A stretch of 64,000 nt of DNA from an uncultured Methanosarcinales archaeon (GCA_964428335.1 CAYRXW010000005.1:79481-143480); one strand, 5' to 3'; positions 28,602 through 50,850 are shown, counted from the first letter of the stretch. The notes: a model not told the origin generated them from the letters alone. Translations and numbers: made by a program.

Positions 28602-30552
28602 ACTTCAATATAAAGCATTCCCTGAAGTCCTTTACTTTTGTGAATTTTGAAAGCATCTCTTTTAATTCATCGACATTCATCTTTGGATCTTTCTTTAAGG
28701 TATATGAAAGCTGCAGGAACTCTATTTTTGAGAACATTGAAAATTTTGAGAGCTGGGAGAATATGAACTTATCTGACAGCTTATACTTGTCTTTCTTTTC
28801 AATGTAGCCAAGCTTTTCTAAGCTTGTGATTTCTGAGTTTATTGCCAATGGAAGTCCTTTTTTTATTAAATCCTGTAGGACAAATTCCTTTAGCACAAAG
28901 GCAGCATGGAGTATGTTTATCTGCACCTGTGTCAGCTCATCCATCTTTGGAAGCTTCTTTACTGAATAAGATTCAATATCAGTTATTATGCTTCCTTCAA
29001 TTGATTCTACAAGAAGGTTAAATTCCCCGCTCTTGTCTTCGCATAAGAACATGAATCCTGGTAAGAGTGTTTCATCAATCCTTGAATCACCATGTATCAG
29101 CTTTAGGTCTTTTAGTGTTATCTTAGGCCTTATTATTGGGAGCATCTCCATATTTTCAAATTCATTCACTTCGCTCATAAATTCCTTATCTGGTATTATG
29201 TCCTGTGCGTGCCCTCCGTGCCTTGTCATCCTTGGCCTTATGTTTACAAACAATGGAATATCTGTAATGCCTGTAACAAGGGCTGTCCCAATCGAGAGAT
29301 TTTTTATCTCTTCCTCTGATTCTGCAGTTATGCCTTCAACGCTTGATGATATTGCCTTTAGGTCATTTGGATTTGTTACCTTCAATATTATCTGGGTTGT
29401 GCACTGGCTTAGTACTGATTTATCTACCCTTGCTGGCCTTTGGCTTATTACACATAGACCAAGGCCAAATTTCCTCCCTTCTGATGCTATTGTCCTAAGC
29501 ACTTTTGAGCATCTTGTCTCTCCAAAACTACGTTCAGGGCAATAATTATGCGCTTCCTCAAGTATTGTGAAAAAAGGTGGTATTTTTTCCTTTTTTCTTA
29601 ATTCAAATAGGTCTTTCATCAGCTTATATACTATTATCTCCTGCACATCCGGAGGTATGCCTTTTAGGTTAATCACTGTGCATTTTCCAGGATGAATGAA
29701 TTCATTATAGGGAACTGATGCATCTGAGAATATTTCCATGTTCTTCAGGTGCTCCAGATTGTTTATTATTGTCCATTTCGAATTATTTTCTTCTGCATCC
29801 AGGGCATATAGGACATCAGCAAAGCTGACTTTGTCCATGTTTTTTAATGCCGCATATAAAATCCCCATCTGAGTATTTGATAATTTTCCAGGTATTAATT
29901 GTGTTATCTCTGCAGCGCTAAGAGAGCTTTCTATCCTAAGCGGCCTTACTCCCTGTATTAATTTTGTATCTCCGTATTCCTGGAGATTTTTTATTCCCTT
30001 TGGGACCAAGGAATATTTCTTCAGCTGATCTGCCTCTTCTTCATTCGCATATTTCATTGAAGAGTATTCCCCATGCGGGTCTATAACTATTACAGGGACT
30101 TTCCTTTCAGTTATCTCCTCAATAAGAACACCTACAGCATATGATTTTCCTGCGCCTGATTTTGCAAGTACTGCTACGTGCTTTGTAAGCAATTTTTCCA
30201 AATCAAGCAGGATATCAATATCCTTCCCTTCTAGCTTTCCTATAAATGCGCTTTTTTTTGATTTCTCAAGCTTTATTATGTCCCTGATGAAGGAATCTTC
30301 AGCAATCAACACTTCTGTTCCCTGGTCAAATGGTATCCTTATCGGCTTTATCCTTTCTTTTTCATCCTTATAGCCTATTACTATGCATTTTGCAATATCT
30401 TTATCTGTCCTTTCTATCTCCAGAATCTGGCATAATACATAGCCATACACCTTATGCATGACCTGGACAAATTCAAATTTTCTTGCTTCCTTATCAAGAA
30501 GAAACTGGAAATTATTAGAGGTGATTTTCCCAAATATCTTTCCAAGTATCAT
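28585..30552 (-). CDS. HerA-like DUF87 ATPase (655 aa)
   Basis: Walker A LAKSGAGKSYAV, IVIDPHGEY, and HerA/FtsK-like core motifs. Confidence 0.65.
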   Translation of the reverse strand: MILGKIFGKITSNNFQFLLDKEARKFEFVQVMHKVYGYVLCQILEIERTDKDIAKCIVIGYKDEKERIKPIRIPFDQGTEVLIAEDSFIRDIIKLEKSKKSAFIGKLEGKDIDILLDLEKLLTKHVAVLAKSGAGKSYAVGVLIEEITERKVPVIVIDPHGEYSSMKYANEEEADQLKKYSLVPKGIKNLQEYGDTKLIQGVRPLRIESSLSAAEITQLIPGKLSNTQMGILYAALKNMDKVSFADVLYALDAEENNSKWTIINNLEHLKNMEIFSDASVPYNEFIHPGKCTVINLKGIPPDVQEIIVYKLMKDLFELRKKEKIPPFFTILEEAHNYCPERSFGETRCSKVLRTIASEGRKFGLGLCVISQRPARVDKSVLSQCTTQIILKVTNPNDLKAISSSVEGITAESEEEIKNLSIGTALVTGITDIPLFVNIRPRMTRHGGHAQDIIPDKEFMSEVNEFENMEMLPIIRPKITLKDLKLIHGDSRIDETLLPGFMFLCEDKSGEFNLLVESIEGSIITDIESYSVKKLPKMDELTQVQINILHAAFVLKEFVLQDLIKKGLPLAINSEITSLEKLGYIEKKDKYKLSDKFIFSQLSKFSMFSKIEFLQLSYTLKKDPKMNVDELKEMLSKFTKVKDFRECFILKYEIQG

Positions 30553-33509: not shown

Positions 33510-35264
33510 TTAATCCTCTGCACTTGCTTCGCTGTCCCACATATCATCTGGATTATCTTCTCTTTTTACCAGATACGGGCCGATGACAAGATAATCAATG
33601 CCTGTGCCCATCATGCATTTGTATGCATCCTGCGGCGTGCAGACTATAGGCTCTCCCCTGATATTAAAAGAAGTATTTATCAAAATAGGTATGCCTGTCT
33701 TTTCTCCGAATTTTTTTATCAGGTCATAGTACAATGGATTCTGCTCCCTTCTTACTGTCTGCAGCCTTCCAGAGCCATCTACATGTGTCACAGCAGGTAT
33801 CTTCTCATGCCATTCTTTTTTTATAGGATATACCATGAGCATATAGTCTGTTGCTTCAGGAACTGGTGTATCGCATTCAAAATAGGTTAATGCATCATCC
33901 TCGCATACAACCGGCGCAAACGGCCTGAATTTTTCCCTGTGCTTCACTTTCAGGTTTAAGATATCCTGCATCTCCTTGTTTGAGGCATTTGATAGTATGC
34001 TCCTGTTTCCTAGTGCTCTTGGGCCCCATTCCATCCTTCCCTGGAACCATCCTATGACATTATCCTTGGCCAGAAGCAAAGCTACCTTATTTACAAGCTC
34101 CTCATCTGTAGAAAATGTGCTGTAAACTATTTTATTCTTATCCAAGAATTCCATTACCTCTTCATTTGCATACCCTGGGCCAAGGTATGCGTCTTTCATT
34201 ATATAATTTCTTTTGTTCCCTAAAATAGTGTTATATATGTAAGAGCATGCCCCGATGCTTGTACCACCGTCAGATGCATTTGGCTGGATCCATATCCTTT
34301 TAAAGCCTGTATTCCTGAGTATCTTTCCATTATAGACACTATTTAATGCAACCCCTCCAGCCAGAACAATGTTTTCCTGGCCTGTCTCTTTTTTTACATG
34401 CAAAAGTATCTTCGTCATTATCTCTTCTGTAATCAGCTGGAGAGCTGCTGCAATGTCCTTATGCCTCTTTTCTACTTTTGATTCTTTTTTCCTCTGTTCC
34501 CCTAAAAGCACAGAAAGCTTTCCTGAAGGCATCCTGTCTGCATAGTGGAACTTGAAATAAGACATGTCCAGCTTGAAGCTTCCGTCGTCTTTTACATCTA
34601 TTATCTTTTTCAGGAGATGGTAATACCTATTCGTATTCTTGTCCATGTTACCATAAGGAGATAGACCCATGACCTTGTATTCAGAATTATTCACGCTAAA
34701 GCCTAGGAATGCTGTTATTGTGCTGTAAAGTAGGCCCAATGAATGCGGGAATTTTATCTCCTTAAGTAAAGTGATGTCATTATTTTCTCCATGCCCATAT
34801 GCCAAAGTTGTCCATTCACCTACTCCATCAACTGTGAGTATGGCTGATTTTTCAAAAGGGCTCACTAAAAAAGATGAAGCTGCATGAGCCATATGATGAG
34901 GTATGAAAAGTATATCCTTGTCATAGCCTATTTTTCTTAGCATAGAAACAACACGCAACTTCTCATTTAGCCATGAAGGGGTTGAACTTAAGAAAACCTT
35001 CAGGCTTAACGGAAAAGAATGAAGGTGCTGTGACATAAGCCTTTCAAATTTCAATATAGGCTTTTCATAAAACCCTATGTAATCTATTTCAGTTATCTTG
35101 AGGTTATTTGAATTCAGGCAAAAATCTATTGCGTTTTTTGGAAATGAATTATCATGCTTTTTCCTTGTGAATCTCTCTTCTTCAGCTGCGCTTACTATTT
35201 TGCCATCTATCAAAAGCGCGGCACTTGAATCATGATAATAGCAACTTATTCCAAGTATTTTCAT
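33510..35264 (-). CDS. carbamoyltransferase (NodU/CmcH family)
   Basis: N-terminal MKILGISCYYHDSSAALLIDGKIVSAAEEERFTRKKHD is the hallmark of this family. 584 aa. Confidence 0.85.
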   Translation of the reverse strand: MKILGISCYYHDSSAALLIDGKIVSAAEEERFTRKKHDNSFPKNAIDFCLNSNNLKITEIDYIGFYEKPILKFERLMSQHLHSFPLSLKVFLSSTPSWLNEKLRVVSMLRKIGYDKDILFIPHHMAHAASSFLVSPFEKSAILTVDGVGEWTTLAYGHGENNDITLLKEIKFPHSLGLLYSTITAFLGFSVNNSEYKVMGLSPYGNMDKNTNRYYHLLKKIIDVKDDGSFKLDMSYFKFHYADRMPSGKLSVLLGEQRKKESKVEKRHKDIAAALQLITEEIMTKILLHVKKETGQENIVLAGGVALNSVYNGKILRNTGFKRIWIQPNASDGGTSIGACSYIYNTILGNKRNYIMKDAYLGPGYANEEVMEFLDKNKIVYSTFSTDEELVNKVALLLAKDNVIGWFQGRMEWGPRALGNRSILSNASNKEMQDILNLKVKHREKFRPFAPVVCEDDALTYFECDTPVPEATDYMLMVYPIKKEWHEKIPAVTHVDGSGRLQTVRREQNPLYYDLIKKFGEKTGIPILINTSFNIRGEPIVCTPQDAYKCMMGTGIDYLVIGPYLVKREDNPDDMWDSEASAED

Positions 35265-36612: not shown

Positions 36613-36699
36613 AAATAAGCTTGAAAAGAAATTCTTTTATAAATATAGCTGAAGTATAGTTTCATCACCTTTAAATATATATAAAAATCCTTTTTTTGG

Positions 36700-37176
36700 A
36701 TGGCTAAATTGATTTCTATTAAAGAACTGCCAGGCCTAGTTGAAAAACTAAGAGAAAATAAGAAGAAAATCTCTACAACAAATGGCGCTTTTGACCTATT
36801 CCATTCAGGACATTTAAGAAGCCTTGTGTTTGCCAAATCTTTTGCGGATATACTGATTGTCGGGCTGAACAGCGATAAATCTATTAAGGAATATAAAAGC
36901 AAGGACAGGCCGATAATACCGCAGAACCAGAGGGCAGAAATACTCTGCGCAATATCTTATGTTGACTATGTTGTGATTTTTGAGGATAAAACGCCATTGA
37001 AGTTCCTTGAAATTGTAAAACCGGATTTTCATATAAAAGGGATGGAATATAAAGGAAATATGATTGAAGAAGAACTTATTAAAAAAAATAAGGGCATAAT
37101 TAAATTCATAAAAAGGGATGGTGTATCAACAACAAATATCATTAATAAGATACTAGGTGAAAAGAATGAAAAATAA
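36700..37176 (+). CDS. D-glycero-beta-D-manno-heptose 1-phosphate adenylyltransferase (HldE domain II-like, stand-alone)
   Basis: [12 protein letters not shown] (HxGH cytidylyltransferase-fold motif). 158 aa. Overlaps the next gene by 20 nt. Confidence 0.7.
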
Positions 37177-38689
37177 GATTGATGATTTCTCAAAGAAAAC
37201 TGTTTTGGTCATTGGGGATTTGATGATTGATAGGTATGTCTATGGTGTTTCCACAAGAATAAGCCCAGAGGCACCTGTACCTATTGTAAAAATTACAAAT
37301 GAAGAGAATATACTTGGTGGAGCTGCAAATGCTGCAAATAATGTTGCATCACTTGGTGGAAAAGCAATGCTTTATGGAGTACTAGGAGATGATTCAGATT
37401 CAGTTGTTTTTGAAAAACTATGCAGGGAAAAGAATATAACCGGATTTTTCCTAAAAGATAGTGCCAGACCAACCACTGTAAAAAAAAGAGTTATTTCAGG
37501 AAATAATTACCAGCTTTTAAGGATGGATTTTGAAAAGACAAATACTATACCTGATGATTTTCAGAAGAAAATATTAAATGAATTCAAGAAGAATTTAAGG
37601 AATATTGACTGCGTTATTTTAAGTGATTATGACAAAGGTGTTTTAACACCCTGGCTTTCAAACCATATCATAATGCTTGCAAAGAGTAAAAACATACCTG
37701 TGATTGTGGATTGTAAGCCAAATAAGGTGAATTCTTTCAAGAACTGCTTTTTGATAACCCCTAATTTGAAGGAAGCAATTGAGATGACTGGTATAAGCCA
37801 GGATATTGTTGAGATGGGAAAGAAGCTTGTCAAGATGCTGAATTCCAATGTCTTCATAACAAGAGGCTCAGAAGGCATTTCTGTGTTTGACAGGAAAGGG
37901 AACCATAGCCACATCCCACCAGTAAAAATTACAAAGCTTTTTGATGTCACTGGAGCTGGGGATACTGTCATTGCAGCAAGCTCATTATGCATCGTATCAG
38001 GTATGGATCTGATTGAGAGCGCAAAGACTGCTAATTATGCTGCCGGACTTGTTGTGCAAAAACCTGGCACTTCTACTATCACAATAAAAGAGCTAAAAGG
38101 CGCACTGGCTGAAGAAATAAGCCATTACCTGAAGGAAAGCATTGAAGTCAAACAGAAAGTGATTGAAGGACAGATAGATAAGATTGAGAAGGCTGCGCAT
38201 GCATTTATCCATGCATACAAGAAAGGGAATAAGGTCATTGCATTTGGAAACGGGGGAAGCGCTTCAGACGCCCAGCATCTGGTCGGAGAATTGGTAGGAA
38301 GATTCAAATTAGAAAGAAAGGGACTGCCTGCAATTGCACTCACAACAGATTCAAGTGTTGTTACGGCTATAGCAAATGACTATGGTTATGATGAGGTTTT
38401 CAGAAGGCAGGTTGAAGCAAATGCCAATAAAGGCGATGTTATTGTTGCGATTTCTACAAGCGGGAATTCGCAAAATGTAATTAATGCAATAACTGAAGCC
38501 AAGAAAATAGGTTGCACTGTAATTGGGCTTATTGGAAAAAACGGAGGAAAAATGGCAGCTTTATGCGATATTCCAATAGTAATTCCTAGCGATAACACTC
38601 CAAGGATACAGGAAGCGCATATCTCAATAATCCACATACTCTGCGAGCTTCTAGATAAGGACCTTGGGAAAAACCAGGATAAAAAATAA
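37157..38689 (+). CDS. fusion: D-glycero-beta-D-manno-heptose 7-phosphate kinase (HldE domain I/HldA-like) + sedoheptulose-7-phosphate isomerase (GmhA, SIS domain)
   Basis: N-half aligns with E. coli HldE domain I ([15 protein letters not shown]...SPEAPVP...DVTGAGDTV). C-half aligns with GmhA ([34 protein letters not shown]). Confidence 0.85.
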
Positions 38690-38721
38690 ATTTATTTTTT
38701 ATAAATAAATCTGAATAAGTA

Positions 38722-39396
38722 TTATACAAGGGATGGATCTTTGCAACATCTAAAACCATCATCCACCACTGTTGTATTGCTAGGATGAAAATGAATTGAA
38801 TAACAATCATTTGAATAAACTAAAAAATCCCAAGTTCCATCAAAATATTGAATATTGTGTGTATTAATATTTAATGCTCCTCCTCTTAATATTTTCTGGC
38901 CATTGACCTCACCATCTACCCATTCAGCCACATTGCCGCTCATATCATAAACTCCACTTTCAGTTTTGCAATTTGGCGAATTTCCTGACTTATCTGATGC
39001 TTCTAATGTGAAATTAGCATAATAAGTATTGCATTTATCTTGGTCAAATATATTACCATATGGAAAACGATTATATGACCTCCCCTGACACGCTTTTTGC
39101 CATTCAATTTGCTTACAAAGCCTTTTACCTTCATTAATACATAATGATTTTGCTTGTGTCCAATCTACCTTAACCATTGGTTCACTACCTTCAATGTTTG
39201 GAAATTCAAATTTGTCTATACAATAATTATTCACATATTCTAAAACAGAATCATTCTCAAATAGTTGACCTGACAAATTCATTTCAAAATAACTACCCTT
39301 AATCAAAACCATATTTTCCGGGCAATTCTGCCTAGGTAACACCAAAATAGCCATACTAAAAAGTAGTAATACTGAAATCACTATTATTGGTCGCAT
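38722..39396 (-). CDS. formylglycine-generating enzyme (SUMF1/FGE-sulfatase) domain protein with signal peptide
   Basis: YDMSGNVAEWV, RGGAL and GFRCC motifs. Confidence 0.75.
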   Translation of the reverse strand: MRPIIVISVLLLFSMAILVLPRQNCPENMVLIKGSYFEMNLSGQLFENDSVLEYVNNYCIDKFEFPNIEGSEPMVKVDWTQAKSLCINEGKRLCKQIEWQKACQGRSYNRFPYGNIFDQDKCNTYYANFTLEASDKSGNSPNCKTESGVYDMSGNVAEWVDGEVNGQKILRGGALNINTHNIQYFDGTWDFLVYSNDCYSIHFHPSNTTVVDDGFRCCKDPSLV

Positions 39397-39572
39397 AATT
39401 TAATTCATTCTTACCACTATAAATATATTCTGATTTTATAATCGACGTGAAATCACCTTTGCGCACCAAACCGTTTAATATGATAAAAGAATGCTCAATA
39501 GTGCTAAATTTAGCATTAAATCATAATAATTCAGGCAAAAAATATAAACAAATTTCATTATTTCATTCCAAT

Positions 39573-41138
39573 ATGAACAAAGCTGTGTTTCTTGACAGAG
39601 ACGGTGTCATCAATGTTGATAAAAATTATGTCCATAAAATAACTGATTTTGAATTCATTGAAAATTCTGTTAAAGCTCTAAAGTCTTTTAAGGACATGGG
39701 CTATAAATTAATCATAATAACAAACCAGTCAGGAATAGGGAGAGGGCTTTATTCAATAAAAGACTATAAGATCCTAAAAAGACAGATAGATTTAAGCTTA
39801 CAGGTTGCAGGAATAAAGATTGATGCTGAATATTTCTGCCCACATTCTCCAGATGATAATTGCAGATGCAGAAAGCCAAGCAGTTTTCTGATAGAGAAGG
39901 CTGCAAAAAGGTTTAATATCAACCTTAAAGAATCATATTTTGTAGGGGACAAGACTTCTGATATAAAGGCAGGAAAAACTGCAGGGCTAAAAACAGTGCT
40001 TGTTAGGACAGGAAAAGGAGGCAAGGATAAAAAATACTATGTCTTGCCAGATATAACCACAGATAATCTTTATGATTTTTCAGAAAAATTAAGACATGAA
40101 TGGAATCCTAAAATCATTTATATTGGAAATTTCAGCTGGGAGAACCATCTTAGGGGAAGAAACCTTTTCAAAGGGCTGAAAGAGAATGATATAGAGGTAA
40201 AATTAATAAATGGAAAAAGATATTTCTCGATGCTTCTTGCACTCTTAAGAAAAGATTTTGATGTTGTTTTGACAACAGGAAAACCTCCGACACTGCTTGC
40301 AATACTTACCAGGTTTTGGCATAGGAAGAAGATATTTTTTGATGTCTACATAAGCGATTATGAGAATCTTGTCATGAACAGGAAGCTCGTAAAAGACGGC
40401 ACATGGAAAGCAAAGATGCTTTATTTCATAGATAAATATACCTGTGAAAAAACAGACTGTGTATTTTTGGATACTGATAAGCATGCTCAATGGTATTATA
40501 CTTTCTTTGGGCTTGACAAGAACAAATTTTCAAGCGTCCTTATAGGAAGTGATGATGAGAGGTTCCATGGGATAAAAGTAAAAAAGGGAAAGAAGTTCAA
40601 TGTGCTGTTCTTTGGAAGCTTTGTTCGCGGACATGGGATTGATGTCATCCTCAGGTCTGCAAAGCTTCTGGAAAAAGAAAATATTGAATTTGTCTTTGCT
40701 GGCAAGGGGATTGTTTTTGATGAGATGGTTCAACTTTCTAAGAAGCTTGAATGCAAAAATGTGGAGTTTTTAGGTTGGATAGAGCAAAAAGAATTACCGA
40801 AATTAATTGCAAAATGCGATGTGTGTCTTGGCGTGTTCGACCCTAATGAGATAAAGATAAGGAGAAGCATTCCTACCAAGCTTTTTGAATGCGCCCCTAT
40901 GAAAAAAATACTTATTACTGGAGATACGCCTGGGATGGAAGGCATCATGGAACATAAGGTAAACGGGATGCTCCCTAAACTAGGAGATGAGAAAGATCTT
41001 GCGAGTTGCATACTTGAAATCTATAAAGACAAAAAACTCAAAGCTGCAATGGAGAAGAACACTTATAAGTTATATGAAGAGAAGTTCAAGACAAAGATGA
41101 TCGGAAAGCAGTTATTGGATCTGATAAGAAAAGAATAA
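39573..41138 (+). CDS. fusion: D,D-heptose 1,7-bisphosphate phosphatase (GmhB, HAD) + GT4-like glycosyltransferase domain
   Basis: N-terminal AVFLDRDGVINVD...ITNQSGIGRG...CRCRKP...GDKTSD closely tracks GmhB. The C-terminal ~370 aa are GT-B-like. ATG at 39573 is taken as the start (the ORF track begins at 39447). Confidence 0.75.
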   Translation: MNKAVFLDRDGVINVDKNYVHKITDFEFIENSVKALKSFKDMGYKLIIITNQSGIGRGLYSIKDYKILKRQIDLSLQVAGIKIDAEYFCPHSPDDNCRCRKPSSFLIEKAAKRFNINLKESYFVGDKTSDIKAGKTAGLKTVLVRTGKGGKDKKYYVLPDITTDNLYDFSEKLRHEWNPKIIYIGNFSWENHLRGRNLFKGLKENDIEVKLINGKRYFSMLLALLRKDFDVVLTTGKPPTLLAILTRFWHRKKIFFDVYISDYENLVMNRKLVKDGTWKAKMLYFIDKYTCEKTDCVFLDTDKHAQWYYTFFGLDKNKFSSVLIGSDDERFHGIKVKKGKKFNVLFFGSFVRGHGIDVILRSAKLLEKENIEFVFAGKGIVFDEMVQLSKKLECKNVEFLGWIEQKELPKLIAKCDVCLGVFDPNEIKIRRSIPTKLFECAPMKKILITGDTPGMEGIMEHKVNGMLPKLGDEKDLASCILEIYKDKKLKAAMEKNTYKLYEEKFKTKMIGKQLLDLIRKE

Positions 41139-41143
41139 AAAAT

Positions 41144-41815
41144 TTATTCCTTGTATTTGAATTCAACCTTCTTGAAGTATAATTTTCCTTTCTCATCTTC
41201 CAGGAATGCGTTAGGATAAGGGTCTTCAAGGCCGCGCATAAAGTTATACAGTTTTTCTGTGTCCCATTTTCCAAACATTTCTTTTGACATCTTTGAATCT
41301 TTAGGCTGCCTTCTTGGAACCTGTTCTTTTTGCTCAGGCCATTTTTTCCATTCCAGGTCTGGATATTCAAACAGGAACTTGTTATATAGGTGGATGCATG
41401 TTGCCTTCAGCTGCAGGAATATCTCATCTATGTTTCCTGATATGTCAAGATCAACTTCTGTTGAATATTCCCTCAGGCTCAGTTCAGGGTATCCTACCCT
41501 TACCATCCTGTGCTTTGTGAATTTCAATCCATCAATTATCTGGTTCTGCAAAGGACTACCGGGAGAATACCTGTCAAGCTCTGCGCAGTGGGCTGTGAAT
41601 GTAGGTATTTTTTCTACAACTTCCTTTACTGGCTCAAATGACCAGCCGCAGAATAAGATCATGTCATACTTGTCTTTTTTCAGCTCTTCCTGCATCTCTT
41701 CTGTTGACTTGCATAATACTGCTTTTTTCACTTTCGGATGCTTTGCAACATATGGATATACTTCTATTGCCCAGTCCCTGTATGCCAAGAATAATAGTTT
41801 AAACATTGCTTTCAC
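41144..41815 (-). CDS. formyltransferase-family protein (sugar N-formyltransferase candidate)
   Basis: RYSPGSPLQNQIIDG resembles the formyl_trans_N motif (SLLPxYRGxxPxxWAI). A paralog of the next gene. Confidence 0.55.
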   Translation of the reverse strand: MKAMFKLLFLAYRDWAIEVYPYVAKHPKVKKAVLCKSTEEMQEELKKDKYDMILFCGWSFEPVKEVVEKIPTFTAHCAELDRYSPGSPLQNQIIDGLKFTKHRMVRVGYPELSLREYSTEVDLDISGNIDEIFLQLKATCIHLYNKFLFEYPDLEWKKWPEQKEQVPRRQPKDSKMSKEMFGKWDTEKLYNFMRGLEDPYPNAFLEDEKGKLYFKKVEFKYKE

Positions 41816-42443
41816 CTTTTACGAATTTTACTTCCTTAAAATATAACTTATTGCCTTTCTCGTCTTCAATATATGCATTAGGATAAGGGTCGCCAAGAGC
41901 GCGTATGATATTATATGATTTTTGCAGATCTTTCCTGAATATTTCCGGATCAAGCTTACTTTCGTTTTCTTTTCTTCGTTTTAATGTCTTTCCAACACCT
42001 TGAGGCTCTATTTTTATGCTAGGATAAACTTTTGCTAAATAAGTTCCAAGTTCTATTGTGCATCTTGTAAGCTCTTTGAATATTTCCTGCATGTTGCCTT
42101 CAAGCGAAATAGGTGTTTTTTTTACAATACCACCTTTATCAATGCCTGGAGCGATTTCAAATAATGAGCATTTTGTGCTTGTTATCCCGTCTATTATCTG
42201 GTTCTGCAAGGGTGAACCGCCACGGTAATCAGGAAGGTCTGAAGGGTGTATGCCAAAGAATTTTACTTTTTTTAACAGTTCATCTGGGATTAACCAACTC
42301 CAGCCTGCTAGAAGTATGAACTCATATTTTTTCAAATCTATTTTTAATAGCTCTTCCTGGGATTTGCAGATTTCAAACCCATGCTGCTTTAAGTCATTAT
42401 ATGCATTCAATGCCCAGTCCCTATAGCCGCAAAATAGCCTCAT
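41799..42443 (-). CDS. formyltransferase-family protein (paralog)
   Basis: IHPSDLPDYRGGSPLQNQIIDG. Confidence 0.6.
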   Translation of the reverse strand: MRLFCGYRDWALNAYNDLKQHGFEICKSQEELLKIDLKKYEFILLAGWSWLIPDELLKKVKFFGIHPSDLPDYRGGSPLQNQIIDGITSTKCSLFEIAPGIDKGGIVKKTPISLEGNMQEIFKELTRCTIELGTYLAKVYPSIKIEPQGVGKTLKRRKENESKLDPEIFRKDLQKSYNIIRALGDPYPNAYIEDEKGNKLYFKEVKFVKGESNV

Positions 42444-43621
42444 TTTTCATAGAATTCTTTTATTGTTTTTACGATATATTCTGCGTCTTCTTTTTTTACC
42501 CACCAGCAGCTTGGAATAGAGACATATTTTGATGTGAAATAATCAAGCCCTGGCCTAGGGATATCATCCTTGAACTCCTTAAAACAGCTGTAGACATCGT
42601 TCCTTGTGTGGACTATTGAATTATCAATGCCTTTCTTTTTTAGGTATTCAACAAATTCTTCCCTTCTGTCTGCAAGCAGTGTGTAAAGCCAATATGATGA
42701 CCTGGCACCCTGTTCCTGCCTTAGGACTTTTATCCCTTTTATTTTTGATAATTCTTTATTGTAGAACTCTCCGTTTCTCCTGCATATCTTGATGATTTTT
42801 TCTGTGCTCTTCAGATGCTCAAGCCCTATTGTTGCATCTATGTCATTCATATTGAATTTGTATCCCCATTCCTTGATGTCATAATACCATCTTAATTCCT
42901 CTTTTATCGCTGTTCTATCAAGGCCAAACCATCTTAATGCTCTTCCTCTCTTATGGTCTTCCTCGCTTTTACAGACAAGAGCTCCGCCGTCACCTGTAGT
43001 CAAGTGTTTTATTGCCTGGAATGAATACATCACAAAATCAGAATGGTTTCCTACTTTCTTCCCTTTATATTCTGAGCCAAATGCATGAGCTGCGTCTTCT
43101 ATGACTTTCAAATTATGATTTTTTGCAATCTCATTAATCCTATCTATGTTTCCAGGGTTTCCTGCCCAGTGCACGTATAAAATAGCTTTTGTCTTTTTTG
43201 TTATCAACCTTTCAATTGAATCTGGGTCTATGTTTCCTGTGTCTGCCAAAACATCTGACCACCTTATCCTTCCGCCCCTTGACATCACTGGCATGTTTGT
43301 TGCTACACAAGTCAATGGTGAAGATATCACTTCATCGCCTTCATTCACGCCAGCAAGCCTTAATGCAAGCTCTAATGCGTGAGTTCCTGCATCGATAGTA
43401 AGTATGTTTTTCACTCCTAAGAATTCTTTTAGCTTTTCTTCGAATGCTGCTACTTTAGGGCCCTGTGCAATGTATCCGGACATCAAGGTATCTCTTAATG
43501 GCTTCATGACTGATTTTGGCATGAATACCTTGAACAATGGGATTTTTCTTGCGCCTATTTCTACGTTTACTGAGTTTACAGGCTGGTTCACGAATTCAGA
43601 GGTCATCTTTTCCTGTGTCAT
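42440..43621 (-). CDS. DegT/DnrJ/EryC1/StrS family sugar aminotransferase (PLP-dependent)
   Basis: Fold type I aminotransferase layout; lysine-region and glycan-cluster context. 393 aa. Confidence 0.75.
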   Translation of the reverse strand: MTQEKMTSEFVNQPVNSVNVEIGARKIPLFKVFMPKSVMKPLRDTLMSGYIAQGPKVAAFEEKLKEFLGVKNILTIDAGTHALELALRLAGVNEGDEVISSPLTCVATNMPVMSRGGRIRWSDVLADTGNIDPDSIERLITKKTKAILYVHWAGNPGNIDRINEIAKNHNLKVIEDAAHAFGSEYKGKKVGNHSDFVMYSFQAIKHLTTGDGGALVCKSEEDHKRGRALRWFGLDRTAIKEELRWYYDIKEWGYKFNMNDIDATIGLEHLKSTEKIIKICRRNGEFYNKELSKIKGIKVLRQEQGARSSYWLYTLLADRREEFVEYLKKKGIDNSIVHTRNDVYSCFKEFKDDIPRPGLDYFTSKYVSIPSCWWVKKEDAEYIVKTIKEFYEK

Positions 43622-44658
43622 GAATAAAGCCTCGCATAGTATTCCTCTCCTGCTGCAATATCTGCTTTCTTCAGGAGTTCTTTTATCTCTTCAATGCCTG
43701 TTATTTCTGATTTTGAAGAATATTCTATCACTTTTGATATTTTTGGCTGCTCTGCCCTTAAATAATCCTTTGACTGGCTTAAATTTCTTGTCTTGTCTTT
43801 TTCTATGATGAAATATTCACCTTTATCTATGCATCTTCTTCCTTCTTCTTCTGAAATAAGGATTTCATGTATTTTTTCTCCGGGGTAAATTCCTATTACC
43901 TCATATGTGAAGTTTTTATCATTTCCGTGCTTTTCAATATATAGAAGCCTTGCCAAATCAACTATTTTTATTGAGGGGGCTTTTTTTACAAAGATTTCCC
44001 CTCCTTCCATATGTTCTGTTGCAAAAAATACCAAATCTATTGCATCATCTAAAGTAAGCAAGAATCTTGTCATATCCTCATGTGTAACTGTTAATTTCTT
44101 GTTGTTTTTAATCAGGTTCCTGAAGAAAGGTATCACTGAACCTCGGGAATTCATTACATTCCCATATCTTACGCATGCAAACAGAGTATTCTGGTTTTTT
44201 GGGGAATAGTTTGCTGAAATCATTAATTTTTCCTGCAAGGCTTTTGTCATTCCCATGACATTTACTGGCTGAACTGCCTTATCTGTTCCTACAGCAACAA
44301 CTTTTTTCACATTGTTTTTTATTGCTGCATCAATAAGATTTTTTGCTCCTAAAATATTTGTTTTTATTGCTTCTTCAGGGCATTCCTCGCAGCTAGGGAC
44401 TTGTTTTAATGCTGCTGCATGATAGACTATATCAACGCCATGCATTGCCTCATCAAGCCTATGCTTGTCCCTAACATCTCCTACAAAAAACCTGAGGTTA
44501 GAAAAATCAGAATATGCAAGCTTCATGTCATACTGCTTTTTTTCATCCCTTGAATATATTCTTATTTCCTTTGGATTGTGCTCCTTTAGCCTTTTTAGAA
44601 TCCTATTTCCAAATGATCCTGTTCCGCCTGTTATAAGGATAGTCTTTCCATTAAGCAT
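43618..44658 (-). CDS. UDP-GlcNAc 4,6-dehydratase (PseB/FlaA1/CapD-like, Polysacc_synt_2)
   Basis: ILITGGTGSFGN Rossmann motif. 346 aa. Confidence 0.7.
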   Translation of the reverse strand: MLNGKTILITGGTGSFGNRILKRLKEHNPKEIRIYSRDEKKQYDMKLAYSDFSNLRFFVGDVRDKHRLDEAMHGVDIVYHAAALKQVPSCEECPEEAIKTNILGAKNLIDAAIKNNVKKVVAVGTDKAVQPVNVMGMTKALQEKLMISANYSPKNQNTLFACVRYGNVMNSRGSVIPFFRNLIKNNKKLTVTHEDMTRFLLTLDDAIDLVFFATEHMEGGEIFVKKAPSIKIVDLARLLYIEKHGNDKNFTYEVIGIYPGEKIHEILISEEEGRRCIDKGEYFIIEKDKTRNLSQSKDYLRAEQPKISKVIEYSSKSEITGIEEIKELLKKADIAAGEEYYARLYS

Positions 44659-44722
44659 AATAAATGGGTTTGAATAGAAAAGCGTATATAAAGATTATGA
44701 TAGTGAAATCAAGAGTACAGAG

Positions 44723-45169
44723 TTATTCATCTGCTATTATGACTTCATCCATAGGAACATCCCATGGTTTTGGGGATAAATTAGTTATCTGGGATTTGAA
44801 GCATAGGCCTATTTTTTTTTCTTTTACATTTTTTAAGAACCTGTCAAAATAACCAAAGCCATGGCCTTTCCTATTTCCTGATAAATCAAAATTTACTCCT
44901 GGGATTATGAAAATTTCAATTTTTTCCTTTGGAAATTTTTCATTTTTTATTGGCTCAAGTATTTCGAATTTTCCTTTTTTTAAGTCACTAAAAGAGCTAA
45001 GTTTTATAGGGATTATTTCGTTTTTAGCTATTTTTGGAACAATAACTGTTTTTTCTTTTAGAAGTGTTTTTATGATTTCATGCGTATTTGGCTCATTTGG
45101 TTTTGAGACATAGATGAATATAACACTATGATTTTTACATTCATTTAGTATTTTTTTTATGTAATCCAT
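44723..45169 (-). CDS. 5-formyltetrahydrofolate cyclo-ligase (MTHFS)
   Basis: IPGVNFDLSGNRKGHGFGYFDRFL matches the family motif PGVAFDxxGxRLGxGxGYYDRxL. Confidence 0.75.
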   Translation of the reverse strand: MDYIKKILNECKNHSVIFIYVSKPNEPNTHEIIKTLLKEKTVIVPKIAKNEIIPIKLSSFSDLKKGKFEILEPIKNEKFPKEKIEIFIIPGVNFDLSGNRKGHGFGYFDRFLKNVKEKKIGLCFKSQITNLSPKPWDVPMDEVIIADE

Positions 45170-45225
45170 TTAGTTTAGTTATATTTCAGAATGTTTATAT
45201 ATGTTTTTCATCTGCTTTTATAATT

Positions 45226-46035
45226 ATGATACTTGATGGTAAAAAAGTAAGTGAAGAAATAGGCAAAAGAATCAGAATAAAAGGAAATATCAAACTTTCT
45301 GTAATACTTGTTGGAAATAACGAATCATCAAGGATTTATGTAAATATGAAAAAGAAAAAATGTGAAGAATTTGGGATTTCCTGTGAGATACATGAATTTT
45401 CAGATAGTTCTGCTGAAAAAGATATAATAAGTAAAATTGAGAGCCTTAATAAGGATAAAACAGTAAATGGCATTTTAGTTCAGCTACCTTTGCCTATGCA
45501 TTTTGATACTAGAAAAATACTGGATAGAGTAAATGAGAATAAGGACGTTGATGGTCTTAGCTCAATAAATATGACAAAGATAATTTTAGGGGAAAAAGGA
45601 ATTGAACCTTGCACACCTAAAGGGATTTTTTCACTTCTTGAATATTATGACATTGATTTAAATGGAAAGGATGTCTGTGTCATTGGGTTTAGTAATACTG
45701 TAGGAAAGCCACTTGCAACCATGTGCATAAATAAGGGAGCTACTGTAACTGTTTGCCATATCAAAACAAAAGATTTGAAAAATCACACTTTAAAAGCAGA
45801 TATAATCATGACTGCTACAGGTGTTCCGAAATTAATTAAGGAAGATATGGTTAAACATGGAGCAGTTTTAGTTGATATTGGAATTTCAAAAGTTAATGGG
45901 AAAGTTATTGGCGATGCTGATTTTGATAATTTAAAAAATAAATGCTCTTTTATTACGCCTGTCCCTGGGGGAGTTGGGCCAATGACGATTATTTCTTTGA
46001 TTGAGAACTTGGCTAATCTAGAAAAAGCTGGTTAG
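45226..46035 (+). CDS. folD: bifunctional methylene-THF dehydrogenase/methenyl-THF cyclohydrolase FolD
   Basis: N-terminal MILDGKKVSEEI, 269 aa, FolD-like domain order. Confidence 0.8.
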   Translation: MILDGKKVSEEIGKRIRIKGNIKLSVILVGNNESSRIYVNMKKKKCEEFGISCEIHEFSDSSAEKDIISKIESLNKDKTVNGILVQLPLPMHFDTRKILDRVNENKDVDGLSSINMTKIILGEKGIEPCTPKGIFSLLEYYDIDLNGKDVCVIGFSNTVGKPLATMCINKGATVTVCHIKTKDLKNHTLKADIIMTATGVPKLIKEDMVKHGAVLVDIGISKVNGKVIGDADFDNLKNKCSFITPVPGGVGPMTIISLIENLANLEKAG

Positions 46036-47083: not shown

Positions 47084-47992
47084 ATGAAGGTTTTAGTTAC
47101 TGGTGGAGCCGGTTTTATTGGAAGCAATATTGCAGTTGAACTTGAAAAAGAAGGTTTTGATGTTGTAATTTTAGATAACCTTTACTCTGGAAACTTAGAA
47201 AATTTAAAGGGATTTAAAGGAAAATTTATCGAACTTGATGTCTGTGATAAAAAAATGCTAAGCTTAAATACTAAATTTGACATATTGTTTCATGAAGCTT
47301 CAATTACTGACCCTAGGCATAATGATGATAAGGAAACTTATTCAAAAAATGTAGAAGGATTTAAAAATATATTAAAGCTTGCAAAAAAAGACAATGCAAA
47401 GCTTATCTATGCTTCTACTGCTAACCTCTATGGAAACGGTAAATTACCAATGGAGGAAGACCAGGAAAAAGAAATTATTTCAGTATATGGAAAATCAAAA
47501 CTTGAGATGGATAAAATTGCAGAAAACTTGTTTGATAAAATGCATATTATTGGTCTTAGGTATTTCAATGTATTTGGACCTAGAGAGAAATTTAAAGGCA
47601 GGCCAGCATCCATGATATATCATCTATGGAAACAGATTAAGGAAGGGAAAAACCCAAGACTTTTCAAATATGGTGAACAAGTTAGAGATCACATTTATGT
47701 AAAAGATGTAGTATCTGCAAATCTTCTTGCAATTAATGGAAAATCTGGAATTTATAATGTAGGAACAGGAATTGGTACAAGCTTTAATGAAGTTGTAACA
47801 ACAATTAATGAATTATTAGGTATGACAAATTCAACTGAATACTTTGATAATCCATATGACCTAAAAACATATCAAGCCAATACACTGGCAGACACAAAAA
47901 GAGCTGAGAAATTTTTGAAATTCAAGGCAAAGTATAAATTTAAAGAGGGTGTTATTGATTATTTAGAGTACCTTAATGAGGAAGAAAATTGA
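47084..47992 (+). CDS. ADP-L-glycero-D-manno-heptose 6-epimerase (HldD/RfaD-like) NAD-dependent epimerase
   Basis: MKVLVTGGAGFIGSNI...ILDNL matches the HldD N-terminus. Start chosen at the internal ATG (the ORF track begins at 47066). Confidence 0.65.
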   Translation: MKVLVTGGAGFIGSNIAVELEKEGFDVVILDNLYSGNLENLKGFKGKFIELDVCDKKMLSLNTKFDILFHEASITDPRHNDDKETYSKNVEGFKNILKLAKKDNAKLIYASTANLYGNGKLPMEEDQEKEIISVYGKSKLEMDKIAENLFDKMHIIGLRYFNVFGPREKFKGRPASMIYHLWKQIKEGKNPRLFKYGEQVRDHIYVKDVVSANLLAINGKSGIYNVGTGIGTSFNEVVTTINELLGMTNSTEYFDNPYDLKTYQANTLADTKRAEKFLKFKAKYKFKEGVIDYLEYLNEEEN

Positions 47993-49047
47993 AAGTTTTA
48001 ATCCTTAACCTTATACCAAATACAATAGGAGACACATTATTCCTCACTCCGCTTATTAATGTCTTAAAATCAAATGGACATGATGTGCATATAACTGTCT
48101 CTCCTTTGAATAAAATGCTCCTTGAGAACAACAAAGATATTTCTAAACTATATGTCATTCATGAACTTGAAGAACTTTCAAAAGAAATAGGAAAACTAAG
48201 AAAAGGTTTTGCATATTTCACTATGATTATTAAAATTGTTAATAGTTGCATTAAAGAAAAATATGATGCATGCCTTGTTGCTCAACCAAATTTTTTTGTA
48301 AGTCAAGCAATTCCTTTTCTTATAGGTGCAAAAAGAAAAATCGGATATCTATACAAAGGAGCAAAGCTATCATTCCTACTAACTGATAAAGTATACTTTG
48401 AAGAGGATGAAATTAAAAAGAGCAGAAGACATTATGTTGATTCTGTTCTTGATCTTGCTAGACCTCTTGGAATTAAACCAAAGAAAAAAGACAGAGTTGT
48501 AACACTCTCAGTTGATCATGAAACTGAAAAAAATATTTTATCTAAGTTCAATTATCTAACGAGGAAATATGTGTGCTTCCAGCCAGGTGCAAAATGGTTA
48601 AGAAAGCAGTGGCCAAAAGAACATTTTAAAAGACTTGGGGAAAAATTGATTGAGAAAAATTTTAAGATTATAATTTTAGGATCTAAAAACGAACATATGC
48701 TTGGTGAACACATTAAAAATAATAATGTAAATATTATAAATCTTTGCGGAAAGATAAATCTTTTAGAGGTTATTTGTATTATGAAGAATTCAAAAATTAA
48801 TATCTGTAATGATTCTGGGCTTGCACACATATCTTCTGCTATCAGCACTAAAACTGCTGTGATTTATGGAATTGCCCACCCTAGACACAGTGAACCACTT
48901 GGATCTGGAAAAGTAATTAAAATAATGAATATAAAAAAAATACCTCTTAGGATTTTGAGAGAAGATGAGACTGAAATAGGTATAAATTTAATGAAAAATA
49001 TTTCTGTTGAGAAAGTTTTCAATAAGATAAAATATGAAATGTTATAA
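47989..49047 (+). CDS. glycosyltransferase family 9 (heptosyltransferase)
   Basis: N-terminal MKVLILNLIPNTIGDTLFLTPLINVLK matches the GT9 hallmark. 352 aa. Confidence 0.7.
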   Translation: MKVLILNLIPNTIGDTLFLTPLINVLKSNGHDVHITVSPLNKMLLENNKDISKLYVIHELEELSKEIGKLRKGFAYFTMIIKIVNSCIKEKYDACLVAQPNFFVSQAIPFLIGAKRKIGYLYKGAKLSFLLTDKVYFEEDEIKKSRRHYVDSVLDLARPLGIKPKKKDRVVTLSVDHETEKNILSKFNYLTRKYVCFQPGAKWLRKQWPKEHFKRLGEKLIEKNFKIIILGSKNEHMLGEHIKNNNVNIINLCGKINLLEVICIMKNSKINICNDSGLAHISSAISTKTAVIYGIAHPRHSEPLGSGKVIKIMNIKKIPLRILREDETEIGINLMKNISVEKVFNKIKYEML

Positions 49048-49113: not shown

Positions 49114-50850
49114 TCAATGAAGTGTTGTAGCCTGTGGAATCAGCTCTGATGCATCTGCTACCTGATAAACTACATATTCATATAGATGATGTCTTGCTGC
49201 CTCACTTAGTGTATCCATGGTAAATCCTTTTTTATCTGACTTATCTATGAACCGTTGCGCAAATTCTACTGAATTAGGTACAACTAGAAAATAAGGTGCA
49301 AGCTGCCTAATTATAGAACTTTTTTCTTGACTGAGCTGAAAATTTTTTATAAATTCTTCTTCTGCTTCTCTAGAGATACTGGTCCATGTCCTAATCATAT
49401 CTCCTAACTTTTCAAAAGAGTAGTTCCCTTGAGTTATATAATTTTGAGCAAATTCATGTCCTTCATCCAAATATGCAAAAATATTGAAATGCCTGCGAAG
49501 CTCTGCATTCTGTTTTCTGTAGGTTTCAAGTTCTTCATCAGTAAGCCATATTCCTGCATCACTTGATTTTTTTATTAAGCTTGGCCCGACATGCTTTTTT
49601 AGAAATCTAAGAACACTTTTTTCAAAAAATGTGTCTTTAATATCCCAATTTTCCCCTTGTGGGTTCTCATAGAACCCTAAATCAACAGAGTATTTTCCAA
49701 GTCTTGTACGTGCATATGGAACAAAGGTAGATGCCCATGCTAAATGCGGACCTCCTGTCTTTTCCCTAAGACTAACGTTTAATTCGAGAATTTCTAAGTC
49801 TGCTGAAAGATTCATCCTTGTTGGTACTGAAGTAGCGCCATAAGGAAGTCCTGTTATCTGCTCTGTACGTATCTTAAATCCACAGTCTACACAATTTTTC
49901 ATCCCTTCAAATATCATCTCCTGTGGCATTTGCCTATCTAATACTTCCTTTCTAATATGTTCATCTGCTGCCTCTATTGCCATCGTTAAGCCACAACAGC
50001 CAGAATCCTTGCAAAGCCTCAGCCTTTTTTTCCCGACTTCTTCAACTGTCATTTCCCATCTCATCTGGGCGTGCCAGCGTATCCCTACTTCCTTTGGCCA
50101 TCTTTTTGCAAATTCTTCAAGCCACTCTATCTTCATACCAAAAACATCATCCTGAAAATAAATCATTTTTGTTGGATATTTTTCTTTCAATTCTTTTCCT
50201 TCCTTAATAACTGCATCTACTGTTCTTGTATTCCATGGAAAAAGCCTCCCTGCGAGCCTTTTATTGCCTATCTCTTCAACTATTTCATTTGATAAACCAG
50301 GAATAACACTTTTTATGTCTGAACTGTTATAACAATATGTGCATCTAAATGGACATCCTGTCATAGTTATTATACTTTTAATTGTACTCCTTCCGTGCTT
50401 TGGATAATCTTCGTAAAATTTAATTCTGTCCGGATGTGGAAAGACATAGTTGCTTTTTTTTGGAGTCTGAACACCTAGTTTTGCTGTACCACTAAGAATT
50501 TCATATAGCGCTGCAAATCCCTCGCTCATAACAACGTAATCGGCTTTTTGAGAAGCTTCAAAAGGAAAGTAACTTGGATGTGGCCCTCCTAGAATTGTTT
50601 TTATATTTGAAAATTCCTTCTTCAATTTTGAAAAGTAATCATATAATGTAATATGATTCCCTGTGTATACATTAAAAGCAATAAAATCTGGTTTTTCTTT
50701 TATAACTTTATAATGGAACTCTGTGAAATCCTGATCTTTAACTAGGCAATAACTGCGCTCAAATCCCATATCCCTTGCTAGGCCTCCTAGATGCAAAAGA
50801 CCAAGCGGTTCAATAACTGAGTAAGCTGCACCAAAAAGTATTTTTCCCAT
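49114..50850 (-). CDS. B12-binding domain radical SAM enzyme
   Basis: CPFRCTYC (CxxxCxxC) plus an N-terminal cobalamin-binding-like region. 578 aa. Confidence 0.8.
   Translation of the reverse strand: MGKILFGAAYSVIEPLGLLHLGGLARDMGFERSYCLVKDQDFTEFHYKVIKEKPDFIAFNVYTGNHITLYDYFSKLKKEFSNIKTILGGPHPSYFPFEASQKADYVVMSEGFAALYEILSGTAKLGVQTPKKSNYVFPHPDRIKFYEDYPKHGRSTIKSIITMTGCPFRCTYCYNSSDIKSVIPGLSNEIVEEIGNKRLAGRLFPWNTRTVDAVIKEGKELKEKYPTKMIYFQDDVFGMKIEWLEEFAKRWPKEVGIRWHAQMRWEMTVEEVGKKRLRLCKDSGCCGLTMAIEAADEHIRKEVLDRQMPQEMIFEGMKNCVDCGFKIRTEQITGLPYGATSVPTRMNLSADLEILELNVSLREKTGGPHLAWASTFVPYARTRLGKYSVDLGFYENPQGENWDIKDTFFEKSVLRFLKKHVGPSLIKKSSDAGIWLTDEELETYRKQNAELRRHFNIFAYLDEGHEFAQNYITQGNYSFEKLGDMIRTWTSISREAEEEFIKNFQLSQEKSSIIRQLAPYFLVVPNSVEFAQRFIDKSDKKGFTMDTLSEAARHHLYEYVVYQVADASELIPQATTLH

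Follow-up and report, generated by a model that had tools for sequence, protein, structure and literature searches.

Putative ADP-heptose synthesis by three genes, two of them fusions, within a surface-glycan gene cluster of an uncultured archaeon

Introduction

Heptose nucleotides have long been regarded as a hallmark of bacteria, where they serve synthesis of the lipopolysaccharide core and are sensed by the innate immune receptor ALPK1. The bacterial pathway to ADP-L-glycero-beta-D-manno-heptose (adenosine diphosphate, ADP) employs GmhA, HldE (or HldA together with HldC), GmhB and HldD, and the heptose is transferred by the GT9 enzymes WaaC and WaaF. Here we describe a putative locus for ADP-heptose synthesis in a 64,000-nucleotide stretch of DNA from an uncultured Methanosarcinales archaeon (GCA_964428335.1, CAYRXW010000005.1:79481-143480; the whole stretch is called the window below, and positions are counted from its first letter). 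Four enzyme activities of the pathway are packed into three genes, two of which are fusions, within a large surface-glycan gene cluster. Its enzymes belong to the five families of the bacterial pathway, and the inferred reaction order is the same as well. In contrast to the bacterial pathway, the kinase is joined to the isomerase and not to the adenylyltransferase, the phosphatase is joined to a GT4-like transferase, and the GT9 acceptor must differ in an archaeal host without lipid A.

Heptose enzymes have been extended to archaea, viruses and eukaryotes by Tang et al. (Science 2024), according to two commentaries (PMC11461863, PMC11573728); M. maripaludis S2 is the named example of functional archaeal heptose enzymes. 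The nucleotidyltransferases are divided into mono-domain, di-domain (kinase/nucleotidyltransferase) and tri-domain (isomerase/kinase/nucleotidyltransferase) classes, and the reason why archaea make heptose "remains elusive" (PMC11573728). The nucleotidyltransferase of the window fits the mono-domain class of Tang et al., one of these three recognised types, and is without the arginine of the STTR5 class described below. The commentaries list neither a kinase-isomerase without a nucleotidyltransferase domain nor a GmhB-GT4 fusion (PMC11461863, PMC11573728). We searched the literature for reports of heptose in DPANN archaea, Woesearchaeota or Nanoarchaeota and came upon nothing relevant. Heptose enzymes had been reported from archaea before; what is new is the repackaging of its domains, in a lineage in which the role of heptose is unstudied.

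A second route leads through GmhA, HddA, GmhB and HddC to GDP-D-glycero-alpha-D-manno-heptose (GDP, guanosine diphosphate), which is used in S-layer and capsule glycans. The PfkB-type kinase, as in HldE and HldA, is the enzyme of the beta route, as opposed to the HddA route. The window holds this PfkB kinase and a nucleotidyltransferase of the cytidylyltransferase fold, both of the beta-anomer type, instead of a GHMP kinase and an HddC-type nucleotidyltransferase.

Results and discussion

A compact ADP-heptose pathway

The open reading frames (ORFs) and domain assignments that a sequence-only reading of this DNA had claimed were all found again by Pfam and NCBIfam scans, with small coordinate corrections only. 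The pathway comprises the following features (aa, amino acids):

36700-37176, + strand: heptose-1-phosphate nucleotidyltransferase, single domain, 158 aa (TIGR02199 rfaE_dom_II, E=1.3e-44)
37166-38689, + strand: PfkB heptose-7-phosphate kinase::GmhA fusion, 507 aa, or 510 aa if translated from GTG 37157 (TIGR02198 and TIGR00441)
39573-41138, + strand: GmhB heptose-1,7-bisphosphate 7-phosphatase::GT4-like GT-B glycosyltransferase fusion, 521 aa (NF006506 and PF00534)
39573-40106, + strand: GmhB domain of this fusion, aa 1-178, followed by a short linker and the glycosyltransferase domain
40113-41135, + strand: GT-B glycosyltransferase domain of this fusion, aa 181-521 (PF00534)
47084-47992, + strand: HldD-like ADP-glycero-manno-heptose 6-epimerase, 302 aa, or a 308-aa ORF from 47066 (TIGR02197, E=5e-80)
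47989-49047, + strand: GT9 heptosyltransferase, 352 aa (PF01075, E=4e-35)

Each pathway domain has a heptose-specific profile as its top match, at or near the curated cut-off, and the E-values at the locus are far beyond chance. Searches against PDB sequences gave HldA, GmhA, GmhB, HldC, AGME and RfaF as top matches of the respective domains. Assignment to generic families, which would have spoken against a heptose pathway, was not what the scans returned: the kinase scored 75.5 bits with the ribokinase profile against 342.5 bits with the heptose kinase profile, and the isomerase 155 bits with DiaA against 211-224 bits with GmhA. Catalytic and metal-binding motifs are intact in the kinase, GmhA, GmhB and the nucleotidyltransferase, and the AlphaFold models of both fusion proteins are confident.

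These matches, together with the gene neighbourhoods compared below, make it probable, in our assessment, that the three genes encode an ADP-heptose pathway in a split operon and that the GT9 protein is the heptose-transferring enzyme. We infer the individual steps from homology. In the 507-aa fusion, the GmhA domain at the C-terminus would isomerise sedoheptulose-7-phosphate to D-glycero-D-manno-heptose-7-phosphate, and the PfkB kinase domain at the N-terminus would phosphorylate this product at O-1 to beta-heptose-1,7-bisphosphate. The GmhB domain of the 521-aa fusion would remove the O-7 phosphate, and the resulting beta-heptose-1-phosphate would be converted with ATP to ADP-D,D-heptose by the stand-alone 158-aa nucleotidyltransferase. 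Epimerisation at C-6 by the HldD-like enzyme would yield ADP-L,D-heptose, from which the translationally coupled GT9 enzyme would move the heptose onto a glycan intermediate. What the locus shows is no new pathway but a known one, repackaged in a lineage-specific way.

The kinase-isomerase fusion

In the 507-aa protein, the kinase domain (about aa 5-315) and the GmhA domain (about aa 318-504) are bridged by one long helix (aa 307-353), and the AlphaFold2 model has a mean predicted local distance difference test score (pLDDT) of 91.3 and a predicted template modelling score (pTM) of 0.68. The kinase half matches TIGR02198 (rfaE_dom_I) with 342.5 bits (E=2e-102; cut-off 345) over aa 8-317 of the 510-aa ORF and positions 2-314 of the 315 in the profile; its top PDB match is HldA of Burkholderia cenocepacia (4e84, E=1.7e-49). 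The GmhA half reaches 211.2 bits with TIGR00441 (E=8e-63, aa 350-499 of the 510-aa ORF), above the cut-off of 209.45, and 224.5 bits with NF010546, below the cut-off of 276, compared with 155 bits for DiaA. Its top PDB matches are the GmhA proteins 1tk9 of Campylobacter jejuni, to which it is 53% identical, and 2x3y of Burkholderia pseudomallei. Among 40 fusion proteins, the kinase residues G51, G52 and D260/G263/G265/D266 (motifs GG and GAGD) are invariant, as are the GmhA motif GNGGS and the residues H371, E375, Q482 and H490. The segment AQHLVGE of the GmhA half aligns to AQHIAGE of 2x3y and the segment around Q482/H490 to KIQEGHLVLGH, so that H371, E375, Q482 and H490 align with the residues that we take to be the zinc ligands (H, E, Q, H) of B. 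pseudomallei GmhA. The overlap with the upstream gene, which had been put at 20 nucleotides, is reduced to 11: ATG 37166 is the likeliest start because GGTGA lies 6 nucleotides upstream and close relatives are called with the 11-nucleotide overlap.

We surveyed the best 120 matches to the fusion in a collection of 5.8 billion proteins. The kinase-to-isomerase order was present in 74 of them, of which 71 are full length (488-526 aa), with 39-93% identity. In 73 of these 74 proteins, GAGD and GNGGS stand exactly 98 residues apart. This fixed spacing argues for a single ancestral fusion with a rigid linker and points to an architecture that arose once and was then inherited across archaeal (DPANN) lineages. 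The named members are all metagenome-assembled genomes (MAGs) of archaea, labelled Woesearchaeota, Nanoarchaeota, Aenigmarchaeota or "archaeon", with one 71% identical relative labelled as a Methanosarcinales MAG; these names agree with the earlier suggestion that the genome is probably archaeal. Judged by the names of these homologues, and not by marker genes, the likeliest host would be a DPANN archaeon related to Woesearchaeota. NCBI routinely annotates members of the family as heptose-7-phosphate kinase or phosphoheptose isomerase. The opposite order, GmhA::kinase, occurs in two proteins of the best-120 set (P0071, P0074) and in P0249, which are 514-516 aa long.

A second survey, of 1.84 billion representatives at 50% identity, gave 6,793 matches at E<1e-30; among the best 150 of these, about six have the kinase-to-isomerase order and two the reverse. 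Judged by these counts, the kinase-isomerase architecture appears to be globally rare and yet a stable archaeal (DPANN) family. The sequence-only reading had called the fusions of this locus unusual, which calls for qualification: the kinase-isomerase fusion recurs as an archaeal family, and fusion of GmhB as such is frequent in bacteria; the GmhB-glycosyltransferase fusion is rare. As indirect evidence on a possible bacterial origin, the GmhA and GmhB domains are 45-53% identical to bacterial enzymes, and the nearest named non-archaeal relative of the kinase is from Cetobacterium.

Outside the fusion family, the nearest kinase relatives (P0081-P0111, about 430-470 aa) combine a PfkB kinase with a cupin or mannose-6-phosphate-isomerase-like domain (PF07883, PF01050), and one of them bears a Nanoarchaeota name. 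In these proteins, the cupin may substitute for GmhA as the isomerase. The window encodes a second PfkB kinase, at 26436-27413; on checking, this proved to be ribokinase-like (128.9 against 45 bits) and not a heptose kinase.

The phosphatase-glycosyltransferase fusion

The GmhB domain of the second fusion exceeds the cut-offs of NF006506 (201.6 bits against 178, E=7e-60) and TIGR00213 (169.0 against 149.6 bits) and shares 45% identity with GmhB of E. coli (2gmw, E=1e-33; Foldseek TM 0.87). Its HAD nucleophile motif DRDGVIN and its zinc loop CPHSPDDNCRC align to DRDGTIN and CPHHP...CDC of the E. coli enzyme, the loop being seven residues shorter. The AlphaFold2 model of the whole protein has a pLDDT of 94.9 and a pTM of 0.85.

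The glycosyltransferase domain has a GT-B fold with a Glycos_transf_1 C-terminal domain (PF00534, 69.1 bits, E=4.5e-19), a domain that it shares with retaining GT4 enzymes such as Campylobacter PglA, Anabaena HepE and BshA. PglA is the closest match in both sequence (E=3e-10) and structure (Foldseek E=9e-18, TM 0.66), followed by HepE, BshA and MshA. Unlike PglA-type GT4 enzymes, the domain is fused to a phosphatase, its N-terminal half has no Pfam GT4 match, and the first glutamate of the EX7E motif is replaced: only the second (LFE) is present, and the first aligns to Arg/Ser (RRSIPTKLFE in the window, kEGFPrtvlE in PglA).

Two lengths needed revision. A start at 39447 would make the ORF 563 aa long; we place the start at ATG 39573, since an identical 521-aa protein is present in NCBI, orthologues begin with M-N-K-A-[IV]-F-L-D-R-D-G and a TATA-like box lies about 25 nucleotides upstream. 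The 42 additional N-terminal residues are probably not translated. The glycosyltransferase part measures about 340 aa and not about 370.

Only three close orthologues proved to be fused (100, 82 and 69% identity), along with the more distant P0126 (40%); P0122, P0123 and the related locus L013 carry the fused form. At locus L002, gmhB (184 aa) and the orthologous glycosyltransferase (352 aa, 40% identical to that of the window over its full length) are separate genes with a 4-nucleotide overlap, and in P0126, which is fused, the glycosyltransferase domain shares 60% identity with the L002 protein. Both glycosyltransferase subclades therefore hold fused and split forms, which argues for at least two fusion or fission events. 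The best explanation of these comparisons would be a recent joining of two adjacent, overlapping genes, and the benefit of the GmhB-glycosyltransferase fusion would be co-expression or co-localisation. Elsewhere in bacteria, GmhB is fused to HldE-II, GmhA or a Mur ligase, and thus appears to be a promiscuous fusion partner. GDP-heptose operons likewise hold such a fusion: in L009-L012 (P0141, P0242), a separate 565-aa GmhB::GT1 protein closes HddC-HddA-GmhA operons of the GDP-alpha-heptose route, and its glycosyltransferase resembles that of the window only marginally (22% identity over the C-terminal half, E=0.003).

Nucleotidyltransferase, epimerase and heptosyltransferase

The 158-aa protein scores 151.5 bits with TIGR02199, short of the cut-off of 181.5, covers positions 2-143 of the 144 in the profile and has its next family at 52.3 bits; its orthologues in L001, L002 and L004 score 160-172 bits. 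We assign it to HldE domain II because this is its top profile match and because its position in the operon is conserved. Its top PDB match is HldC of B. pseudomallei (5x9q, 80.6 bits), and both the HxGH nucleotide-binding motif and the C-terminal STT motif (KRDGVSTT) are present. An arginine at position 5 of (F/L)XXGRSTT is the hallmark of promiscuity towards CTP and UTP (STTR5 class; PMC11573728). This arginine is absent from the protein of the window, where valine stands at position 5, and from those of L001, L002 and L004. Since valine replaces the STTR5 arginine, ATP is predicted to be the nucleotide used.

The HldD-like epimerase beside a GT9 gene at 47084-49047 had been correctly recognised, as profiles and PDB matches bear out. 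The epimerase scores 269.1 bits with TIGR02197 (cut-off 274.6) against 140 bits with GalE, and its top four PDB matches are all AGME proteins, including those of Helicobacter pylori (3sxp, 181 bits) and E. coli (1eq2), compared with 118 bits for the highest-scoring UDP-glucose 4-epimerase chain, 4zrm. The GT9 protein passes the cut-offs of PF01075 (121.8 against 22 bits) and TIGR02195 (137.5 against 134.6 bits) and matches E. coli RfaF (1psw, E=4e-16). Its TTG start overlaps the stop of the epimerase gene (TTGA), with GAGG 4-10 nucleotides upstream.

Operon structure and a recent insertion

The gene order hldE-II, kinase::gmhA, gmhB is kept in L001, L002, L004 and L013-L016, where hldE-II likewise precedes the kinase-isomerase gene and the genes overlap or nearly abut. 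The window departs from this arrangement by an intervening segment, and the features that bear on transcription and on this segment are:

36670..36687, + strand: TATA-like box TTTAAATATATATAAAAA, about 25 nucleotides 5' of the hldE-II ATG, read directly from the sequence
38665..39569, no strand: inserted segment, absent from the 87%-identical relatives L013/L014
38722-39396, - strand: FGE-sulfatase-like protein (PF03781, 54.3 bits, E=2e-14), 224 aa, hydrophobic segment at the N-terminus

In blastn comparisons with L013/L014, homology to the window ends at 38664 and resumes at 39570, and the relatives have a 32-nucleotide spacer instead. The FGE-like gene is also absent from between the two fusion genes in L001. 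Contiguity of the operon in relatives of 87% nucleotide identity shows that the FGE-like gene was inserted; it is the passenger of a recent 0.9-kb insertion and not a component of the pathway. A search for flanking repeats or mobile-element ends around the insertion revealed none that were convincing. The ancestral unit, as reconstructed from these relatives, would be a three-gene operon of hldE-II, kinase::gmhA and gmhB::glycosyltransferase.

The inserted DNA has TATA-like elements of its own on both sides. A TATA-like box lies about 25 nucleotides 5' of 39573, and a further one precedes the epimerase start at 47084 by about the same distance. The box at 36670..36687 may be an archaeal promoter that gives rise to a leaderless or short-leader transcript, and the boxes about 25 nucleotides upstream of 36700, 39573 and 47084 would fit archaeal leaderless transcripts.

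Role of the fused glycosyltransferase and alternative explanations

Several observations weigh against the pathway as proposed. Three profile scores lie under their cut-offs, namely those of the kinase (342.5 against 345 bits), the epimerase (269.1 against 274.6) and the nucleotidyltransferase (151.5 against 181.5). Nucleotide promiscuity is still possible in enzymes without the STTR5 arginine (PMC11461863). A preference for the beta anomer was sought in the NCBIfam models of GmhB, with which the domain scores 201.6 (beta) and 152.7 bits (alpha), but these models do not discriminate, since the GmhB proteins of HddA/HddC (alpha) operons favour the beta model as well. Finally, the recurrence of independent GmhB-glycosyltransferase fusions could mean a real mechanistic coupling that an explanation by co-expression underrates.

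Of the alternatives, one fares best, although we consider it unlikely: the fused GT4-like domain could itself be a heptosyltransferase of a non-GT9 type, and the fusion would tether synthesis to its consumer and allow substrate channelling at the membrane. In favour of this role, gmhB and this glycosyltransferase lie side by side or form one gene in the window and in L001, L002, L013, L017 and P0126, the HddC-HddA-GmhA operons join GmhB to an unrelated GT1-type domain, and the replaced first glutamate of EX7E hints at an atypical donor. The GmhB product, however, is not the substrate of this glycosyltransferase, as adenylylation lies between the two, and the genomic contexts of the orthologues point elsewhere. 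The nearest orthologues that stand alone (51-56% identity) form part of a conserved module of heptose genes, a polysaccharide deacetylase, a methyltransferase and the glycosyltransferase. The heptose block of this module is either of the ADP type (GT9, kinase::GmhA and GmhB::HldE-II, on the P0125 contig, JGI 3300072015) or of the GDP type (GT4, HddC, HddA, GmhA and GmhB, in L018-L022), so that relatives L018-L021 carry the GDP-heptose pathway at the same position and with the same glycosyltransferase. The exchange of ADP- and GDP-type cassettes at one position of otherwise syntenic clusters looks like in-place displacement of one pathway by the other. GT9 accompanies the ADP-type genes in the window, in L004 and on the P0125 contig; it was not detected by tblastn in the GDP-type block of L018 nor among the called genes around L020/L021. 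An extra GT4 accompanies the GDP-type block, and the orthologue of the fused glycosyltransferase is retained beside both types. Such conservation across a switch from ADP-beta- to GDP-alpha-heptose makes a donor-specific heptosyltransferase unlikely.

A scan of metagenome contigs for orthologues of the fused glycosyltransferase added 12 loci, over which the idea that it is always heptose-linked holds only partly. L022 is heptose-linked but does not count as an independent case, since its flanking genes match those of L018 at 100% identity; L023 and L025 have GT9 alone nearby. The four loci with usable flanks that remain (L024, L027, L028/L029 and L030) have no heptose genes within 10 kb, and L026, L031, L032 and L033 are too short or too distant for use. 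In M. maripaludis (L007), no heptose genes lie within 8 kb of the orthologue; over L024, L027, L028, L030 and L007 together, the distances searched were 6-10 kb. An amino-sugar block adjoins the fused glycosyltransferase or its orthologue in every context. Most likely, judging from these contexts, GT9 is the heptosyltransferase and the fused glycosyltransferase catalyses a neighbouring step in assembly of the same glycan.

A different division of labour is suggested by analogy. Sucrose-phosphate synthases occur among the Foldseek matches of the GmhB-glycosyltransferase protein, and sucrose-phosphate and trehalose-6-phosphate synthase/phosphatase fusions join a GT-B transferase to a HAD phosphatase, as the window does, in the reverse domain order. 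The glycosyltransferase might thus build a glycoside with heptose 7-phosphate, which the GmhB-like domain would dephosphorylate afterwards. We regard this as very improbable. In contrast to the synthase-phosphatase fusions, the fusion of the window has as its HAD domain an orthologue of GmhB, a pathway enzyme that stands alone in relatives. If true, this division of labour would represent an alternative reaction order for heptose incorporation and would explain why at least two independent GmhB/GT-B fusions exist, in contexts of ADP- and GDP-heptose.

Use of the heptose nucleotide outside the envelope, in a secondary metabolite of the septacidin or hygromycin type or in a secreted signalling molecule, seems similarly far-fetched. 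Streptomyces natural products do draw on heptose nucleotides (PMC11461863), and the role of archaeal heptose is stated to be unknown (PMC11573728). The neighbourhood, however, is a classical glycan-assembly cluster, with GT9, at least four other glycosyltransferases, a Wzx-like flippase, PseB/PseC-like proteins and formyl- and carbamoyltransferases, and profile scans of the window detected no genes for non-ribosomal peptide synthetases, polyketide synthases or aminocyclitol formation in it. The surface-glycan context read from the sequence alone is supported by GT9, several GT4 enzymes, the flippase and amino-sugar genes.

It is effectively refuted that the fused ORFs stem from misassembly or frameshifts in a metagenome bin, or are pseudogenes, in an organism with separate genes. 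The contig is of metagenome type and gmhB and the glycosyltransferase gene are separate in L002 and L004, but independent samples repeat the fused 520-522-aa form at 100, 82 and 69% identity, it recurs across the junction in L013/L014, 74 kinase-isomerase fusions share one frame and spacing, and both fusion proteins fold as confident multi-domain models.

Surface-glycan context and other genes of the window

The surface-glycan gene cluster around the heptose genes spans at least 25 kb, and the G+C content of the window is 27-38%. Scans of the window for tRNA genes and Rfam families gave no matches, and an NCBIfam scan of ten ORFs at 11-22.5 kb detected no phylogenetic marker. Immediately downstream of the GmhB-glycosyltransferase fusion lies the amino-sugar block:

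41144..44658, - strand: two formyltransferase-like genes, a PseC-like aminotransferase and a PseB-like 4,6-dehydratase, syntenic downstream of the fusion in L001 and L017

Over 41144-46035, these two formyltransferase-like, PseC-like and PseB-like genes are grouped with 5-formyl-tetrahydrofolate cyclo-ligase and FolD, which suggests a local supply of formyl-tetrahydrofolate for an N-formylated amino sugar. At 59360-60058 lies a third gene of the formyltransferase-like kind. Upstream of the heptose genes, a NodU-like carbamoyltransferase is followed by a UDP-xylose-synthase-like short-chain dehydrogenase/reductase (33510-35264). This pair recurs beside heptose or glycosyltransferase genes in relatives (L004/L006), in L004 together with an ornithine/aspartate carbamoyltransferase, and its recurrence suggests a carbamoylated glycan. 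The gene at 49114-50850, which converges with that of GT9, encodes a 578-aa B12-binding radical SAM protein that could act as a C-methyltransferase on a sugar.

Further downstream, four genes at 53648-58636 form a possible module of the O-methyl-phosphoramidate type, resembling those of Campylobacter capsules. In its 985-aa protein (55679-58636, - strand), a cytidylyltransferase-like domain at the N-terminus is joined to NF004508/PRK05849 (839 bits, cut-off 501); the latter we take to be the Cj1418 L-glutamine kinase family. The glutamine amidotransferase of the module has gamma-glutamyl-CDP-amidate hydrolase as its top match (91.9 bits, below cut-off), and an NTP_transf_3 protein and an S-adenosylmethionine-dependent methyltransferase complete it. 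Genes like these have been reported on archaeal Borg elements (bioRxiv 10.1101/2024.11.05.622173).

On the other side, peptide-forming enzymes adjoin the glycan cluster of this archaeon at 22463-28601. A tandem pair of D-Ala-D-Ala-ligase-like ATP-grasp genes lies at 22463-24438, a weak MurL-like protein is encoded at 24948-26342, and the gene at 27681-28601 is asparagine-synthase-like. Elsewhere in the window, 3758-10703 holds the 1036-aa R subunit of a type I restriction-modification system and genes next to it, 21557-22471 encodes a weak NurA-like protein, and 28585-30552 a HerA-like ATPase.

Conclusions

The pathway fusions alone would not astonish a specialist; the recurrent GmhB-glycosyltransferase fusions and the exchange of ADP- and GDP-type cassettes deserve a closer look. 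The fusions act as "Rosetta stone" links, confirming that the four activities work together, and the combination of isomerase and kinase in one chain offers a compact enzyme for enzymatic ADP-heptose synthesis. As to the purpose of heptose nucleotides in archaea, this locus and about 70 related loci in archaeal MAGs place the pathway in a surface-glycan cluster, beside a GT9 enzyme. Our data thus suggest a testable answer, namely that heptose would decorate the envelope glycan of small, mostly uncultured archaea.

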